64,000 nucleotides of DNA, from sequence record MK573636. One strand, written 5' to 3'. The notes under the pieces were generated by a model, which was not told where the DNA came from, made no database searches, and was given only the letters and a program-made list of their open reading frames with translations. This document shows positions 31,906 through 38,520 of this stretch, piece by piece (the stretch's first letter is position 1; the number at the start of each line of letters is the position of its first letter). Source of the DNA: Escherichia phage vB_EcoM_PHB13. A program made the translations under genes and the position numbers.

Positions 31906-32174
31906 TGAAAGTCGGTATTATTCAATTATGGACGGCTACCAGTGAAAACTACGCAGTAGCCGTAGATTATTACGGTTTACAATATCTCTATGATGAAGCG
32001 AGCGCATCATGGCTTCCTGTGCAAGAAAATAGCGATATCTCAAGACCTGCAACTGTATTCGACCGTGGCGTTGTCTTTATCGATATTGACGAGACAGTAG
32101 CAAAACTGCGTAAGAAAGCAATCAACAAGAAAAAGGTGATGTGGGATGAAAGAATATTTGAAACTGTTGCGTGA
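31905..32174 (+). CDS. hypothetical protein (89 aa)
   Basis: ORF from ATG 31905 (MKVGIIQLW); overlaps the td start. Confidence 0.5.
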   Translation: MKVGIIQLWTATSENYAVAVDYYGLQYLYDEASASWLPVQENSDISRPATVFDRGVVFIDIDETVAKLRKKAINKKKVMWDERIFETVA

Positions 32175-33366
32175 TGTTCTTGATAATGGCTGGCCTCGTG
32201 AAGACCGCACGGGGGTAGGTACGCTCTCTAAATTCGGCGCAGAGATGCGAATTGATTTAAGCAAGGGTTTCCCATTACTGACCACTAAAAAGATGGCTAC
32301 AGCCTCTGTAATTGGCGAATTGCTATGGTTTATGGAAGGGTCACTTGACCGCCGTCGCTTACAGGAAATTACACGCGGTAAGTTTGACGAAGAAGCCTTT
32401 GACATTTGGCGCGGTAATTGTCTTGATATGAAAGAAAAGAATCCTTTGCGATTCAATGGTTATAATGTTGGCAATATGTATGGTATGGCATGGCGACGCA
32501 AACCGATTCATCCACACGGTGAGATCAAAATTAAGCGCGTTAAGAGCAAATATACACATACATTTAAACACCCGTGGGTAGAAGACTTTACGCCAACCAA
32601 TGAAACAGAAGACCGTTTATGTGCTATCTGGCGTGGTATGATTTATGAAGAGTTTGATTGTATTCTGGTAGCAGACCACTGGAAGACTCAATCTAATTTT
32701 GTTAATGATGCATATTGCTTGTGGGGATTCCAGGAATGGGTAGATAGTGGTTATTTCGATTATCTGCTTGATAGTGATTATCTGGGTGGCGACATTTTAG
32801 CACCGGATACCACGATGTTTGTTAGTATGGACGTAGACACATCAAGCACTAAAGACGATGAAGAATATGTCTATCGCCCGAAGATTTGGGAAGACCAGTT
32901 ACAAAACGTGATTGAACAAATTAAAAACAATCCAACGGATCGCCGGATCATTATTGACTCATGGAACGTACAAGGAACACATAATGCTGTATTAGGTGTA
33001 TGTCATCCTTTCGTGCAATTCTATGTCAATGAAGGTAAACTGTCTTGTATGTGGTTTCAGCGAAGCGTAGACAGCTTTTTGGGCTTGCCCTTTAACGTCG
33101 CCAGCTATGCGCTGTTAACTCACATCATAGCGAAAATGTGTGATCTTGAGGTAGGAGAACTGATTTTCTCTGGTGGAGATACTCACATTTACAAAAACCA
33201 CTTTAATCAAGTTATGGAACAGTTAAGCCGTGTTCCGTTTGATAAACCAACAATTGAGTTGCCGGAATTTAAATCTTTAGATGAGATATTGACAAAGACT
33301 CCGAAAGACTTTAAAATTCACAACTATCAAAGCCATCCAGCGATCCCCGCTCAAATGGCAGTATAA
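32146..33366 (+). CDS. td: thymidylate synthase with ~125-aa internal insertion (406 aa)
   Basis: N-terminal MKEYLKLLRDVLDNG...DRTGVGT and C-terminal RRIIIDSWNV...VCHPFVQFYV...FQRSVDSFLGLPFNVASYALLTH...GDTHIYKNH...HPAIPAQMAV match T4/E. coli TS; an extra block follows YGMAWR. Confidence 0.85.
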   Translation: MKEYLKLLRDVLDNGWPREDRTGVGTLSKFGAEMRIDLSKGFPLLTTKKMATASVIGELLWFMEGSLDRRRLQEITRGKFDEEAFDIWRGNCLDMKEKNPLRFNGYNVGNMYGMAWRRKPIHPHGEIKIKRVKSKYTHTFKHPWVEDFTPTNETEDRLCAIWRGMIYEEFDCILVADHWKTQSNFVNDAYCLWGFQEWVDSGYFDYLLDSDYLGGDILAPDTTMFVSMDVDTSSTKDDEEYVYRPKIWEDQLQNVIEQIKNNPTDRRIIIDSWNVQGTHNAVLGVCHPFVQFYVNEGKLSCMWFQRSVDSFLGLPFNVASYALLTHIIAKMCDLEVGELIFSGGDTHIYKNHFNQVMEQLSRVPFDKPTIELPEFKSLDEILTKTPKDFKIHNYQSHPAIPAQMAV

Positions 33367-33436: not shown

Positions 33437-35680
33437 ATGATTAAAAATGTTGTTAAGTCTTCCGGTCTGACTGTTCCGTTTGAAAAAGAAAAAGTAATGA
33501 AAATTCTGGAAGCGGCAGCCGAAGGTCATAACGTTGATCCATATGAATTGTTTGATATGGTTGAACCACTTCTGACAGAAGGTATGTCTACCAATGATAT
33601 CCAGAAAGTATTGATTAAGGTCGCCGCAGATAACATTACTGTAGAAACGCCTGATTATCAATATGTAGCAAGTAACCTTGCAATGTTCGCTCTTCGTAAA
33701 TCAGTATACGGTCAATTCCAACCGATTGATTTTTATAGCCATATTGAGCGTAATATTGCAACCGGAAAATATGATCGTGAAATTCTGCAAAAGTATTCCC
33801 GTGAAGAAGTGGAATATCTGGAGAAATTCATCGACCATAAACTTGATTTTAAAATGACCTATGCTGGTGCGATGCAGTTAAAAGAGAAATATCTTGTTCA
33901 GGATCGCAGCACTAAGAAAATCATTGAAACACCGCAATTTGCGTATATGCTGATCGGTATGTGCTTGCATCAAGAAGAGACAGAAAATCGACTTGAACAT
34001 GTGATTGATTTTTATAATGCTGTTGCGAATAAGCAAATCTCTCTGCCTACTCCGATTATGGCAGGTGTGCGTACCCCAACACGCCAATTTAGTTCGTGTG
34101 TGGTGATTGAAAGTGATGACTCATTGCAGGGCATCAACGAAACAGCAAATGCAATCATCAAGTATATTAGCAAGCGTGCTGGTATCGGTATCAACGCTGG
34201 CATGATTCGCGCGGAAGGATCTAAGATCGGGCATGGTGAAGTTCGTCATACTGGCGTTATCCCATTCTGGAAACATTTTCAGACTGCCGTTAAGTCATGC
34301 TCACAAGGCGGTATTCGTGGCGGGGCGGCGACTCTCTATTACCCAATGTGGCATTTAGAGTTTGAAAGTCTTATTGTGTTGAAGAACAATAAGGGGGTGG
34401 AAGATAACCGCATTCGTCATCTTGATTACGGCGTACAGATTAATAACCTGATGGTAGAGCGATTCCTTAAACGGGATTACATTACTCTGTTTAGTCCAGA
34501 TGTTGCAGGTGGCTTGTTGTGGGATCTGTACTTCCGAGATGAGGAAGGTTTCCGCCAGCTTTACGAAAAACTGGAAAAAGATCCGAGTGTTCGTAAAACT
34601 CGTGTTAAAGCCGAAGACCTGTTTTTAGCGGTGGCAATTGAACGTTTTAACACTGGTCGAATCTATCCAGCGTTCACAGACAACATGAACAATCACGGGG
34701 CGTTTATTCGTAATGTAGCACCGATTAAACAATCCAACCTGTGTTGTGAAATTGCTCTGCCGACAAAACCGATGGGTCGTGATGATTCAGAGATCAGTCT
34801 ATGCACTTTGGCAGCATATGTTTTAGGAAACTTTGATATCGAAAATATGGAAGAAGTAGAACGCATTGCTATGGTTATGGTGCGTGCACTTGACAACCTG
34901 TTAGATTATCAGGATTATCCTGTAGAACAAGCTCTGACAGCCAAAAAACGTCGCTCTCTGGGTGTTGGCGTGACTAACTTTGCATCGTATCTCGCGGATA
35001 ATTTCTTCACATATGAAGACGCTAACGAGTTTACGCATAAAACGTTTGAACGCTTGCAATATGCTCTGATTAAGGCTAGTGTGCAACTAGCAAAAGAGAA
35101 GGGTACTTGCGAACTGATGCACGAAACACGTTATGGTCGCGGTGAACTGCCTATCGACTGGTACAAAAAGACAGTAGATGAACTGGTTGATCCGGTGTAT
35201 GAGATGGATTGGGAAGAACTGCGCGAAGACCTGAAAAAATATGGCATTCGTAACAGTACGCTTTCGGCTCTGATGCCTTGTGAGTCGTCTTCTCAGGTAT
35301 CTAACAGCACAAACGGTATTGAACCGCCTCGCGGGATTGTATCGGTTAAAGGATCAAAGGAAGGACAATTTAATCAGGTTATTCCGAACGTAGAGAATAA
35401 TGCTGATGTTATTGACCTGCTTTGGACACTGATCAAGAAAGGTAACAAGCCTTATCTGACACTGGCAGCGATTATGCAGAAGTTTGTAGATCAGGCGATT
35501 AGTTCCAATACATCCTATGATCCAAGCACTTATAAGACTGGTAAAGTCGATATTGCTGATGTGTTAGATGATATGTTGTTCGCTCAACATTACGGTCTGA
35601 AAACCCTGTATTATGCGAACGTTCGCGACGGTGCAGATGGTACGGAAGACGCTAGCGAGTGCTCATCTTGCAAGCTGTAA
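33437..35680 (+). CDS. nrdA: ribonucleotide reductase large subunit
   Basis: 747-aa ORF with N-terminal ATP-cone region and class I RNR features (…NLCCEIALP…, C-terminal CxxC); size matches T4 NrdA (754 aa). Confidence 0.9.
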   Translation: MIKNVVKSSGLTVPFEKEKVMKILEAAAEGHNVDPYELFDMVEPLLTEGMSTNDIQKVLIKVAADNITVETPDYQYVASNLAMFALRKSVYGQFQPIDFYSHIERNIATGKYDREILQKYSREEVEYLEKFIDHKLDFKMTYAGAMQLKEKYLVQDRSTKKIIETPQFAYMLIGMCLHQEETENRLEHVIDFYNAVANKQISLPTPIMAGVRTPTRQFSSCVVIESDDSLQGINETANAIIKYISKRAGIGINAGMIRAEGSKIGHGEVRHTGVIPFWKHFQTAVKSCSQGGIRGGAATLYYPMWHLEFESLIVLKNNKGVEDNRIRHLDYGVQINNLMVERFLKRDYITLFSPDVAGGLLWDLYFRDEEGFRQLYEKLEKDPSVRKTRVKAEDLFLAVAIERFNTGRIYPAFTDNMNNHGAFIRNVAPIKQSNLCCEIALPTKPMGRDDSEISLCTLAAYVLGNFDIENMEEVERIAMVMVRALDNLLDYQDYPVEQALTAKKRRSLGVGVTNFASYLADNFFTYEDANEFTHKTFERLQYALIKASVQLAKEKGTCELMHETRYGRGELPIDWYKKTVDELVDPVYEMDWEELREDLKKYGIRNSTLSALMPCESSSQVSNSTNGIEPPRGIVSVKGSKEGQFNQVIPNVENNADVIDLLWTLIKKGNKPYLTLAAIMQKFVDQAISSNTSYDPSTYKTGKVDIADVLDDMLFAQHYGLKTLYYANVRDGADGTEDASECSSCKL

Positions 35681-35688
35681 AATAAGTG

Positions 35689-35717
35689 TTGACGCGGGGA
35701 GAAATCCCCGCTATAAT
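35689..35717 (+). promoter_or_regulatory. early promoter with stem-loop in the spacer (PeSL-like)
   Basis: TTGACG 35689-35694, stem GCGGGGA-GAAA-TCCCCGC in the spacer, TATAAT 35712-35717. Confidence 0.6.
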
Positions 35718-35748
35718 ACAACCATCAAAAACAAGTGAGGATTTTATT

Positions 35749-35916
35749 ATGACCAAATTAAAATGTGTTGCTGTAGATTTTGAGCTAGCTGATAGCTTTG
35801 TTGTCGGTGATGTATATGATGCTCGACATGATGGGACTTGCTACTACGTTGAGGATGAATACGGCGTAGAATGGGCTATTCTTCCTGATGATAAATGTTT
35901 TGAGGTTGTCGGATAA
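35749..35916 (+). CDS. hypothetical protein (55 aa)
   Basis: ATG 35749 (MTKLKCVAVDF) after GTGAGGA RBS. Confidence 0.5.
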   Translation: MTKLKCVAVDFELADSFVVGDVYDARHDGTCYYVEDEYGVEWAILPDDKCFEVVG

Positions 35917-36089
35917 TGGCTACTGTATGGTTATTGATTGCAATCAGCAATTCAATGTATAATTACGGAAATATGTCAAGCATTGAGTTTGCAACAAAGC
36001 AGGATTGCGTTAAAGCTCGCGAGGTTATCCGCGAAGACAATAAACGCTTTATGAATCTGTACTGTGTTGAAAAGCAGAAGGTGAACTAA
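35916..36089 (+). CDS. small protein (57 aa), tandem paralogue A
   Basis: MATVWLLIAISNSMYNYG...SIEFATKQDC...CVEKQ; TAATG overlap with neighbours; not in the ORF track (below 60 aa). Confidence 0.5.
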   Translation: MATVWLLIAISNSMYNYGNMSSIEFATKQDCVKAREVIREDNKRFMNLYCVEKQKVN

Positions 36090-36256
36090 TGGCTACAATA
36101 TGGTTATTGCTTTCCGTTAGCGTAGGCGTATATAATAAAGGAACTGTTACCAGCGTAGAGTTTTCATCACATCAAAATTGTTTTGAAGCTGTGCAGGAAT
36201 TGCAGCAGGATAGCGAAATAAACAGAAATACTAAGTTCTTTTGTGTTAAAAAGTGA
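36089..36256 (+). CDS. small protein (55 aa), tandem paralogue B
   Basis: MATIWLLLSVSVGVYNKG...SVEFSSHQNC...CVKK; clearly similar to the preceding ORF. Confidence 0.5.
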   Translation: MATIWLLLSVSVGVYNKGTVTSVEFSSHQNCFEAVQELQQDSEINRNTKFFCVKK

Positions 36257-36271
36257 TAGTGAGGTGAATTA

Positions 36272-37435
36272 ATGAGCGTATTTAATCGTGAACATGTTGA
36301 TATTATGAATGAACCGATGTTTCTGGGTAGTGGGTTGGGTATCGCTCGCTATGATATTCAGCGTCATCAAGTATTTGAAGAATTAATTGAAAAATCTCTG
36401 TCATTTTTCTGGCGTCCAGAAGAAATTTCACTCGCAACCGACCGTATTCAATATCTTAATATGTGTGACGTTGAAAAGCGTTTCTTTACCGAAAACTTGA
36501 AGTATCAGACATTACTTGATTCTATTCAAGGTCGCGCACCGTCCGCAGCATTTGGTCCAATTGTATCTGATCCGACTCTCGATACATGGTTGCAAACATG
36601 GACATTCAGCGAAACGATTCATAGCCGAAGCTATACACACATTATGCGTAACTGTTTCATTGATCCGGCTAGTGAGTTCGACCAGATCATCGATAACCCT
36701 GCTATCATGAAGCGAGCGGAATCTATCGGGCAATATTATGATGATGTTCTGGTGAAAATCCGTGAATACGAGGACGCTAAAGAAAGTTTTAGTCGTTCTT
36801 CTGAAAATGAATTTGACCTTGATGCATATTCTGATAGCATTTCGTACGTGGAAGAAACTAAACGCAATCTGATGGACTCACTCTATCTGTGTATGCATTG
36901 CGTTAATGCACTGGAAGCAATCCGTTTTTATGTGTCCTTTGCATGTACTTTCAGCTTTGCCGAACGTGGTTTACTGGAAGGTAACGCGAAGATCATGAAA
37001 TTTATTGCGCGTGATGAACAACTTCACTTAAAAGGAACACAATACATTATTCGTCAATGGCAAACGGGGGCTGATGGTGATGAGTGGAAACAGATTGCGG
37101 AAGAACTTGAAGACGAAGCAACGAAAATCTTTCTGGATGTTGTCGAGCAAGAAAAAGAATGGGTAGATCACTTATTCGCAATGGGGGCAATTCCTGGCTT
37201 GTCACCGGAAATTCTGAAAACCTATGTAGAATACCTGGCAGATTCCCGTATGCGTGCTGCCGGACTGAAAAGCCCGTTTAGTGTTCGTCGTCATCCGTTA
37301 CCGTGGATGCGTAAATGGTTGAACTCTGACGAAGTACAGAATGCAGCGCAGGAAGTAGAGATTATGTATCTGGTATCTCAGGTTAATACCGATTTAACAG
37401 ACGACGACTACAACCGATTCGGGAAATATCTATGA
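36272..37435 (+). CDS. nrdB: ribonucleotide reductase small subunit
   Basis: 387-aa ORF with di-iron/tyrosyl radical region motifs; size matches T4 NrdB (388 aa); no intron interruption. Confidence 0.9.
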   Translation: MSVFNREHVDIMNEPMFLGSGLGIARYDIQRHQVFEELIEKSLSFFWRPEEISLATDRIQYLNMCDVEKRFFTENLKYQTLLDSIQGRAPSAAFGPIVSDPTLDTWLQTWTFSETIHSRSYTHIMRNCFIDPASEFDQIIDNPAIMKRAESIGQYYDDVLVKIREYEDAKESFSRSSENEFDLDAYSDSISYVEETKRNLMDSLYLCMHCVNALEAIRFYVSFACTFSFAERGLLEGNAKIMKFIARDEQLHLKGTQYIIRQWQTGADGDEWKQIAEELEDEATKIFLDVVEQEKEWVDHLFAMGAIPGLSPEILKTYVEYLADSRMRAAGLKSPFSVRRHPLPWMRKWLNSDEVQNAAQEVEIMYLVSQVNTDLTDDDYNRFGKYL

Positions 37436-37908
37436 TATATTTTGTCGATTTAGATTTTACGATCACAGATCCAACGCATCGACTAGCAAAGATGCCAACC
37501 GAAAATCTTGATAAAGTCGAGTCGTGGATCGAATATAACAAGGCATGTGGGGGAGATTCCCCCATTTACGATGTAGTTCGTGTTATTAATGCTCTTTCCG
37601 ACAACGGGCATTTGATTTACATCCTCACCGGACGAAGTTCACATGCTTACATGGAAACAATTGATTGGTTAATTTCTAACGGGGTGTGTTTTGATAAAAT
37701 CTTTATGAGAGGCCGTACCGATTCCCGTAAAGACTATCACATCAAATTAGAGGTAATTAAATCCTTTGATAAAGATGAAGTTGTCGGAGTCTTTGAGGAT
37801 AACCCAGAAGTGATTAAAGTTTTGCGTGAAAATGGTTATCGTGTCTTTGACGTAGGAAATCACAAAGATAAGACGCGAGCGGATATTGCAAATCACGGTC
37901 ATGATTAA
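37432..37908 (+). CDS. HAD-superfamily phosphatase-like protein
   Basis: N-terminal FVDLDFTITD (DxDxT motif) and C-terminal GVFEDN are HAD motifs; occupies the position of T4 denA but shows no endonuclease II similarity. Confidence 0.55.
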   Translation: MIYFVDLDFTITDPTHRLAKMPTENLDKVESWIEYNKACGGDSPIYDVVRVINALSDNGHLIYILTGRSSHAYMETIDWLISNGVCFDKIFMRGRTDSRKDYHIKLEVIKSFDKDEVVGVFEDNPEVIKVLRENGYRVFDVGNHKDKTRADIANHGHD

Positions 37909-38301: not shown

Positions 38302-38520
38302 ATGAAATTTACTTGCACCGACTCTATCAACAAACACTTTGTAGTGGGCGAAGTATACGAATCTACTACCATTCGCCAGCGTGACCTGATGGGTCGCCTT
38401 TACAATCAGCCAGTATTCATTATTGGTGAAGAATTGTTCTACATTGAAAACCGTCCGTGGGTTGCTTTCAATAAACGAGGACGCAAGGTAGCAAAATTCG
38501 AACTTGTCATTAAAAAGTAG
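38302..38520 (+). CDS. hypothetical protein (72 aa)
   Basis: ORF after AGGAGAATCAAA-ATG. Confidence 0.55.
   Translation: MKFTCTDSINKHFVVGEVYESTTIRQRDLMGRLYNQPVFIIGEELFYIENRPWVAFNKRGRKVAKFELVIKK

Follow-up and report, generated by a model that had tools for sequence, protein, structure and literature searches.

Two PHROG 5579 mini-protein genes between nrdA and nrdB of an RB49-like coliphage

In phages RB49 and phi1, promoters of the PeSL class carry a stem-loop between the -35 and -10 elements (Arbiol et al. 2010, PMC2839356). Such PeSL elements have been shown to be strong early promoters that also act as terminators or attenuators (Arbiol et al., PMC2839356), and in these phages they accompany cassettes of ORFans, uncharacterised small genes lying directly 3' of the element. 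The nrdA-nrdB small-gene locus is not mentioned in that paper (PMC2839356). In T4, the nrdA-nrdB intergenic region holds mobE and nrdB.1, and this locus is a homing endonuclease hotspot in the T4 and Krischvirus lineages alike. Among catalogued protein families, PHROG 5579 (pVOG VOG8694 / VOG6395) has as members RB49p232, RB49p231, phi1 ORF232/231 and JeanPiccard bas02_0072. Neither the locus tags RB49p232/RB49p231 nor PHROG 5579 is mentioned in any paper that we found, and a loosely specified literature search returned no Krischvirus expression data. Here we compare with these systems a tandem pair of small ORFs between nrdA and nrdB.

By sequence, the window (the whole 64-kb stretch of DNA that was analysed) is from a Krischvirus, an RB49-like T4-type coliphage. 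The 2-kb stretch around the pair aligned with 58 phage records at 90-98.5% identity, with KFS-EC as the best match. On the local + strand the gene order is td, nrdA, ORF X, ORF1, ORF2 and nrdB. The upstream boundary of the locus is nrdA (33437..35680, +), a 747-aa ORF for the large subunit of class Ia ribonucleotide reductase that is annotated as nrdA in RB49 and KFS-EC. An intergenic region of 68 nt separates it from the 55-aa ORF X (35749..35916, +), the first gene of the small-ORF cassette, which matches phrog_16302 at E=1e-41. ORF X is followed by ORF1 (35916..36089, +; 57 aa), a homologue of RB49p232, and by ORF2 (36089..36256, +; 55 aa), a homologue of RB49p231, each with an ATG start. 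The downstream gene is nrdB (36272..37435, +), which encodes the reductase small subunit and is likewise annotated in RB49 and KFS-EC. Beyond it, 3' of nrdB, lie a phosphatase with the HAD_PNKP domain alone, several small ORFs, a GIY-YIG gene and an Rnl1-type RNA ligase.

The cassette is tightly packed. TAATG stop/start overlaps join ORF X to ORF1 and ORF1 to ORF2; the coordinates, sequences and overlaps that an earlier note had reported for a 57-aa and a 55-aa ORF between nrdA and nrdB proved to be exact. ORF1 has the Shine-Dalgarno site GAGG 10 nt 5' of its ATG, and ORF2 has AAGG 7 nt 5' of its own. The gap between ORF2 and nrdB is 15 nt long and contains a Shine-Dalgarno site alone, with no promoter recognisable there in a sigma-70 scan. 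Within 35400-36500 we found neither a terminator-like site nor an Rfam family. A programmed frameshift that would fuse ORF1 with ORF2 was also considered and is unlikely, since inspection of the junction, GGTGAACTAATGG, revealed no X XXY YYZ slippery heptamer.

Between nrdA and ORF X we identified a PeSL, an early sigma-70 promoter with a stem-loop in its spacer (35689..35717, +). It has the form TTGACG-17-TATAAT, with 11/12 consensus matches, and the spacer holds the GC-rich hairpin GCGGGG-AGAAAT-CCCCGC. Folded as RNA, the element reaches -21 kcal/mol (z=-4.5). All of its bases (29/29) are unchanged across 20 Krischvirus loci and two divergent ones, L036 and L037. In KMB43 the PeSL is duplicated and the copies flank an inserted methyltransferase-like gene, and in the window we found no second copy when up to 3 mismatches were allowed. 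The match to the PeSL class, its conservation and the activities reported for PeSLs therefore suggest that ORF X, ORF1, ORF2 and nrdB form one early transcription unit, with translation coupled through the overlaps. The PeSL here probably terminates or attenuates read-through from nrdA and starts transcription of X-ORF1-ORF2-nrdB.

ORF1 and ORF2 align by BLASTP with 21/55 identities (38%) and 75% positives at E=1e-16, and a single PHROG profile is common to both. This similarity is far beyond chance and bears out the paralogy proposed in the earlier note. A family HMM run over all six frames of the window recovered ORF1 and ORF2 alone (E=7e-28 and 2e-25), with the next match at E=0.24, and tblastn found exactly two sites per Krischvirus genome. 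Across 15-17 Krischvirus genomes, dN/dS estimated by the Nei-Gojobori method was 0.064 for ORF1 and 0.31 for ORF2; for comparison, ORF X gave 0.19 and the flanking parts of nrdA and nrdB gave 0.02-0.06. Polymorphism in both ORFs fell mostly at third codon positions, and no internal stop occurred in either of them in these genomes. These substitution patterns indicate that ORF1 and ORF2 are genuine genes under purifying selection, and we read them as genes because of their annotation, dN/dS, Shine-Dalgarno sites and the PeSL promoter upstream. The central proposal of the earlier note, two small paralogous protein-coding genes, thus stands on homology, on purifying selection, on presence in related phages (ORF1 in 52 and ORF2-type genes in 54 of the 58 Krischvirus records) and on homologues in unrelated phage families. 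Its remark that the ORFs are easy to miss does not stand, for the annotations of RB49, KFS-EC and most relatives list both as hypothetical proteins. NCBI and UniRef already contain the exact ORF1 and ORF2 protein sequences. The two are already known genes, encoding hypothetical proteins of a catalogued family, and the finding is correct but ordinary.

Both proteins match PHROG 5579 over the length of its profile, ORF1 at E=5.5e-24 (residues 2-53 on profile 1-52/52) and ORF2 at E=3.4e-24 (residues 2-55 on profile 1-52/52), and both show the family core of W5, L7, F25 and two cysteines at a length of 50-65 aa. The same profile, phrog_5579, was matched by 30/30 aligned homologues. KFS-EC gp120 and gp119 have the very same sequences as the two window proteins. 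Among 1.8 billion proteins, 51 cluster representatives were found at E<1e-3, nearly all of 50-65 aa. Two longer hits, P0018 (775 aa, 10 stretches) and P0031 (351 aa, 5 stretches), were considered as tandem domain arrays and rejected as false positives because they are low-complexity tandem repeats without the W/L/C/C core. Searching with tblastn from ORF1 or ORF2, we found no T4-type phage outside Krischvirus. Retrieval of loci from ORF2 alone gave two IMG/VR loci only.

Single copies of the family are spread over distant phages. They occur in the Drexlerviridae JeanPiccard (bas02_0072), Henu7 and tonijn, in the Koutsourovirus SDFMU_EhYP, where the gene is unannotated, in the jumbo Erwinia phage Hallingskeid and in several metagenomic phage contigs. 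Autographiviridae are among the groups with once-per-locus homologues of 50-65 aa, and a Vibrio phage homologue is a tblastn-level match. Scanning the loci L001-L028 with the family HMM gave one copy in every non-Krischvirus locus; tonijn and the Vibrio phage lie outside this set and were placed by tblastn only. The genes next to the family vary, and include a DnaB-type helicase with a DNA polymerase, a polynucleotide kinase/phosphatase, glycosyltransferases and runs of small genes, with no constant partner gene across the family loci. ORF1 and ORF2 had no match in Pfam, NCBIfam or PADLOC at E up to 10, and ORF X had none in Pfam or NCBIfam at the same limit. The 30 aligned members gave isolated sub-threshold matches to Pfam, in 1-2 members each (best E=0.015), and the family profile found nothing meaningful among PDB sequences. 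By profile and fold, the pair falls outside the PADLOC anti-phage defence components and the families of solved structure.

AlphaFold2, supplied with a 30-sequence alignment, modelled ORF1 with a mean pLDDT of 89.3 and a pTM of 0.71, all five models scoring at least 82. The predicted elements are beta strands at residues 5-11, 20-25 and 46-52 and an alpha helix at residues 28-42, the helix preceding the last strand. ORF2, modelled from a shallow alignment, has the same topology (pLDDT 81.5). For each protein, then, the high-confidence prediction is a soluble, compact domain with the order beta-beta-alpha-beta. The AlphaFold model folds the hydrophobic N-terminus into a three-stranded sheet as strand beta1 (pLDDT ~88), and the hairpin-plus-crossover topology makes it likely that beta1 is buried at the centre of the sheet. 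L7, C31 and C50/52 (C50 in ORF1, C52 in ORF2) are invariant, and W5 and F25 are conserved at 90% or above, in alignments of 24 and 30 sequences. C31 belongs to the first turn of the helix and C50/52 to the last part of beta3, a topology that probably puts both cysteines at one end of the domain. Searching BFVD with Foldseek retrieved the ORF2 homologue of Makalu_003 (E=1e-7) together with dozens of uncharacterised phage proteins of 50-70 aa and similar fold, matched more weakly (E 1e-3 to 0.09, TM 0.4-0.83). Neither structural nor sequence comparisons gave a match indicating function.

Two metagenomic relatives of Krischvirus, in which NrdB is 82-90% identical to that of the window, each carry one family member directly 5' of nrdB, 49-51% identical to ORF2. 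In one of them, L036, the family gene lies directly 3' of the identical PeSL and there is no X gene. Because NrdB has kept 82-90% identity in these divergent relatives whereas the mini-protein has kept 49-51%, the comparison indicates that the nrdA-nrdB slot for a mini-protein is old in the Krischvirus lineage and that the mini-protein evolves much faster than the neighbouring genes. In a neighbour-joining tree, ORF2 grouped with the single pre-nrdB gene of the divergent relatives (35% bootstrap), and ORF1 and ORF2 were sisters in 0.5% of bootstrap trees, which are weakly resolved at ~55 columns. A recent tandem duplication in place was considered and set aside, the 0.5% sister bootstrap lending it no support in a tree that is weak at this number of columns. 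The pair is probably an old duplication or a second acquisition, judging from the sequences, and a recent in-place duplication is not likely.

Copy number varies among close relatives. ORF X, which is found in Krischvirus only and is unrelated to ORF1 and ORF2, is present in all 58 records, although it is broken in FL20, FL37, G37-3 and AV108. JSE, FL15 and AV108 lack both ORF1 and ORF2, so that X runs straight into the normal post-ORF2 sequence, and in these three phages an inserted gene for a 215-aa homing endonuclease separates the Shine-Dalgarno site of nrdB from the nrdB ATG. PTE-Eco09 carries the same 215-aa endonuclease gene as the JSE type and keeps both ORFs, as does G5211, which has a different endonuclease gene of the HNH type (179 aa). 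G37-3 combines the 179-aa HNH gene with a single hybrid ORF gene; FL20 has the same hybrid and no endonuclease gene. This hybrid joins ORF1-type first codons to the body of ORF2, with the crossover in the shared stretch ATGGCTAC..TATGGTTATTG. The metagenomic contig L007 encodes a 44-aa in-frame chimera (ORF1 1-30 plus ORF2 42-55) that adjoins the HNH gene, and its junction lies at GCAGGAT, common to ORF1 and ORF2. The deletion junctions fall in short stretches of identity shared by the two paralogues or located at the paralogues' edges, and in most of the deleted variants an inserted homing endonuclease gene lies alongside.

From these junctions we infer that the 2-, 1- and 0-copy states arose from break repair at an endonuclease hotspot or from ordinary recombination between diverged repeats. 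Natural Krischviruses occur with two copies, one copy and none, and the genomes therefore indicate that ORF1 and ORF2 are accessory, dispensable genes. A functional link between X and ORF1 was suggested by FL20 and G37-3, both of which are ORF1-less and have X broken by different mutations. We rejected it: FL37 has the 2-nt X frameshift of FL20 and keeps ORF1 and ORF2, X is also broken in AV108, and X is intact beside the chimeric ORF of L007.

What the two genes do can be approached by weighing several readings against the same evidence. That the ORFs have no protein product, and are chance ORFs or a spacer or leader coupling translation or transcription into nrdB, would agree with the natural loss of both in JSE, FL15 and AV108. 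The idea is barely credible and fits the data poorly, given the strong purifying selection at the amino-acid level, the protein homologues of 30-50% identity at unrelated positions in unrelated phages, the confidently predicted AlphaFold fold and the L036 homologue, which at 51% identity keeps the same length and reading frame. Membrane-anchored or secreted products are very unlikely. On this proposal the N-terminus would be a signal peptide or anchor, leaving a mature peptide of ~40 aa with one disulfide and a role at the envelope, such as superinfection exclusion or the timing of lysis. The hydrophobic N-terminal stretch pointed out in the earlier note is real, with uncharged runs of 11 residues in ORF1 and 15 in ORF2; uncharged hydrophobic runs of 9-17 residues, small residues at ~11 and 13 in many members that resemble a -3/-1 cleavage motif, and two invariant cysteines that could make a periplasmic disulfide all speak for export. 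The signal peptide or transmembrane segment that the note had raised did not emerge, however, from hydropathy, insertion energy or n-region charge. We looked for a charged n-region followed by a core of ~10-15 residues with an AxA-type site, or else for a helix of ~19 residues. The Kyte-Doolittle 19-residue maximum is 0.61 for ORF1, 1.11 for ORF2 and 1.55 for the family, none reaching 1.6; the Hessa summed insertion energy has a family minimum of +3.9 kcal/mol; and K or R is found among the first six residues of 2/30 members. The hydrophobic run is too short, the positively charged n-region is missing, and the putative cleavage motif is absent in P0028, P0034 and P0037. All five AlphaFold models place residues 5-11 in a sheet strand, with block means of 88-96 over residues 1-40. 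Export thus fits poorly. Because hydropathy is low, a basic n-region is rare, and a near-invariant W5 and invariant L7 are unusual in a signal peptide, we conclude that the proteins are, by prediction, soluble, and that the N-terminus is neither a signal peptide nor a membrane helix. A pair in which neither member works alone, whether toxin/antidote-like or an obligate heterodimer, might be expected from the tight, translationally coupled tandem and from the difference in selective constraint (dN/dS 0.06 vs 0.31). Such a pair is highly improbable and also fits poorly: every non-Krischvirus locus examined has a single copy, FL20 and G37-3 carry a single ORF2-type gene, and both proteins have the same fold and conserved core, with no toxin/antidote differentiation seen.

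The main rival, by virtue of its conserved position, is a ribonucleotide reductase accessory, a cysteine-pair mini-protein that would help to assemble, reduce or regulate class Ia NrdA/NrdB of the phage or the host. In one variant, an ORF1/ORF2 dimer with a metal, an Fe-S centre or a redox disulfide would act loosely in the manner of YfaE, NrdH or NrdI. A family member sits between nrdA and nrdB in every carrying Krischvirus, the position is kept in the divergent relatives despite the gap between NrdB and mini-protein identity (82-90% vs 49-51%), the pair and nrdB are downstream of the same PeSL, and two cysteines are invariant. This reading is nevertheless weakened, and we regard it as unlikely. 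JSE, FL15 and AV108 have intact nrdA and nrdB and lack both mini-protein genes, and the complete genome of SDFMU_EhYP carries a homologue and has no NrdA/NrdB match. Moreover, the neighbours in Drexlerviridae, jumbo phages and other contigs are unrelated, ORF1, ORF2 and ORF X lack Pfam/NCBIfam matches (E up to 10), also to thioredoxin-, ferredoxin- and flavodoxin-type families, and there is no CxxC motif. Because SDFMU_EhYP is a carrier without reductase genes, the genomic evidence makes it unlikely that the proteins serve the phage reductase specifically. A broader idea is that PHROG 5579 is a new class of cysteine-pair effectors of nucleotide or DNA metabolism, each a dimer around a metal, an Fe-S centre or a redox disulfide. 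Its members might, for instance, activate or protect a class Ia reductase (phage or host NrdB, YfaE-like) or neutralise a host defence or enzyme that depletes dNTPs, and the dimer here could be an ORF1-ORF2 heterodimer. If true, it would explain both the nrdA-nrdB position in the Krischvirus lineage and the occurrence of family members among the replication genes of phages dependent on the host's reductase; we consider it a long shot.

The explanation that we favour, and hold to be probable on the whole, is that ORF1 and ORF2 are two early accessory genes of Krischvirus that encode diverged, soluble PHROG 5579 mini-proteins that may modulate a partner. Under this explanation the genes would probably be expressed early from the PeSL upstream of X-ORF1-ORF2-nrdB, and their small early products would work in the cytoplasm, binding a protein of the host or of the phage and modulating it. 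This mode of action is common among phage proteins of 50-60 aa, and we put it forward by analogy, as a tentative proposal. From the predicted topology, the proteins may act as homo- or hetero-oligomers, and the cysteine pair may serve as a disulfide staple or share a metal site. The copies may also differ in which targets they recognise.

The practical value of the locus is small, and no long-standing open question is touched. The pair neatly represents a family of phage mini-proteins that is widespread and wholly uncharacterised. Because its fold is modelled confidently, its two cysteines are invariant and variants with 0, 1 and 2 copies occur naturally, it is an easy target for knockout or pull-down experiments. 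The locus also illustrates how homing endonuclease insertion and short-homology recombination remodel small-gene cassettes beside T4-type core genes.

Set beside the described systems, the pair shares the genomic position of T4 mobE and nrdB.1. T4 NrdB.1 (83 aa), compared by sequence inspection only, lacks the W-L...C...C pattern and looks unrelated. Among reductase accessory proteins, YfaE is a 2Fe-2S ferredoxin, NrdH is glutaredoxin-like and NrdI is flavodoxin-like. Unlike these, the pair has two cysteines only, 19-21 residues apart and without a CxxC motif, in a beta-beta-alpha-beta fold of ~55 aa. In the 30 members we found no ferredoxin-, thioredoxin- or flavodoxin-type Pfam domain, FMN_bind being sub-threshold in 2/30 (best E=0.027), and neither sequence and profile comparison nor co-occurrence with reductase genes places the family among the accessory redox proteins of ribonucleotide reductase. 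The UDG inhibitor p56 of phi29/PZA, at 56 aa, is matched at E=1.7, within the background of generic alpha/beta folds. Sequence identity to p56 and to the anti-CRISPR AcrIC8 is 6-8%, with no shared motifs, and a profile search of PDB sequences gave no match; the likeness to such small early inhibitors is an analogy in mode of action and not one of membership. The RB49 and phi1 PeSL cassettes resemble the locus more closely: here too a sigma-70 promoter with a GC-rich, polyG/polyC stem-loop lies in an intergenic region directly 5' of uncharacterised small ORFans, and gene content differs among close relatives. The locus departs from them in having a PeSL on the upstream side only, instead of flanking PeSLs on both sides, with the core gene nrdB as its downstream neighbour. 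Unlike PeSL-PeSL recombination, moreover, the deletions here use microhomology of the paralogues or their borders, mostly beside homing endonuclease genes. With PHROG 5579 itself the pair shares its length, the W-L...C...C pattern and an early-region location, and it differs from the family in none of these.

The small-ORF run that leads into nrdB is preceded by a PeSL (window 35689-35717), an early promoter of the form TTGACG-17-TATAAT whose spacer holds a GCGGGG/CCCCGC hairpin. All 29 of its bases are identical across 20 Krischvirus loci and in two divergent metagenomic relatives, L036 and L037. Phage KMB43 carries two copies (690-718 and 1588-1616 of its locus, L015), which bracket an inserted gene annotated as "DNA-cytosine methyltransferase". 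This doubled arrangement is the layout expected if cassettes are inserted by means of the PeSL.

The first gene of the run, ORF X (window 35749-35916), encodes a 55-aa protein of phrog_16302 with three cysteines and a weak resemblance to DUF7244. ORF X is restricted to Krischvirus, is missing from the divergent relative L036, and has been inactivated recurrently among Krischviruses: by a 2-nt deletion in FL20, by a frameshift in AV108 and, in G37-3, where codon 12 has turned from GAG into TAG. FL37 apparently carries the same frameshift as FL20, judging from a two-piece tblastn match and a split annotation that are alike in both. A 72-aa ORF at 38302-38520 shares a short FVVG-VY motif with ORF X, in a match confined to 13 residues (E=0.003).

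Outside Krischvirus, a clear homologue of PHROG 5579, the family of the paralogues ORF1 and ORF2, is present in the Enterobacter phage SDFMU_EhYP (Koutsourovirus). It is 56 aa long and 49% identical to ORF1, and its position (L004 2501-2668, corresponding to OQ884031.1 2644-2811) falls between the genes for an AAA ATPase and a DNA polymerase, where the record has no annotation. The family profile also matched 10 stretches of P0018 (775 aa) and 5 of P0031 (351 aa), both long tandem-repeat proteins; we rejected these as multi-copy family members, since both are without the core pattern conserved in the family and appear to be false positives of low complexity. PHROG 5579 members adjoin or stand near pnk/phosphatase genes in Henu7 and tonijn, two phages of the Drexlerviridae, which hints weakly at a putative association with such genes. 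The gene annotated as "polynucleotide kinase" in RB49 and KFS-EC (window 37432-37908, 158 aa), downstream of nrdB, has HAD_PNKP phosphatase as its sole domain match and lacks the kinase domain.

The thymidylate synthase gene td (window 32146-33366) encodes 406 aa that match a 266-position Pfam profile end to end, implying an insertion of ~140 aa at roughly residues 115-250. This insert contains an RL-x-IW-x-GM ... W motif, presumably akin to the DNA-binding modules that accompany phage HNH endonucleases. The td product of L036 is likewise long (~412 aa). In a divergent Krischvirus-like metagenomic phage, an I-HmuI/NUMOD-like endonuclease gene (237 aa) splits nrdA into two ORFs (L036 753-3940; L037 56-2304).

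The nrdA-nrdB gap, between window positions 36256 and 36272, is itself a homing endonuclease hotspot, as seen by comparing the equivalent positions in loci L016, L024, L014, L007 and L030-L032. A 215-aa endonuclease gene occupies it in JSE, FL15, AV108 and PTE-Eco09, and a 179-aa HNH_3/AP2 endonuclease gene in G5211, G37-3 and the metagenomic L007. Either gene is inserted after the nrdB Shine-Dalgarno site and before the nrdB start codon. These insertions parallel the situation in T4, where mobE occupies the same gap between nrdA and nrdB.
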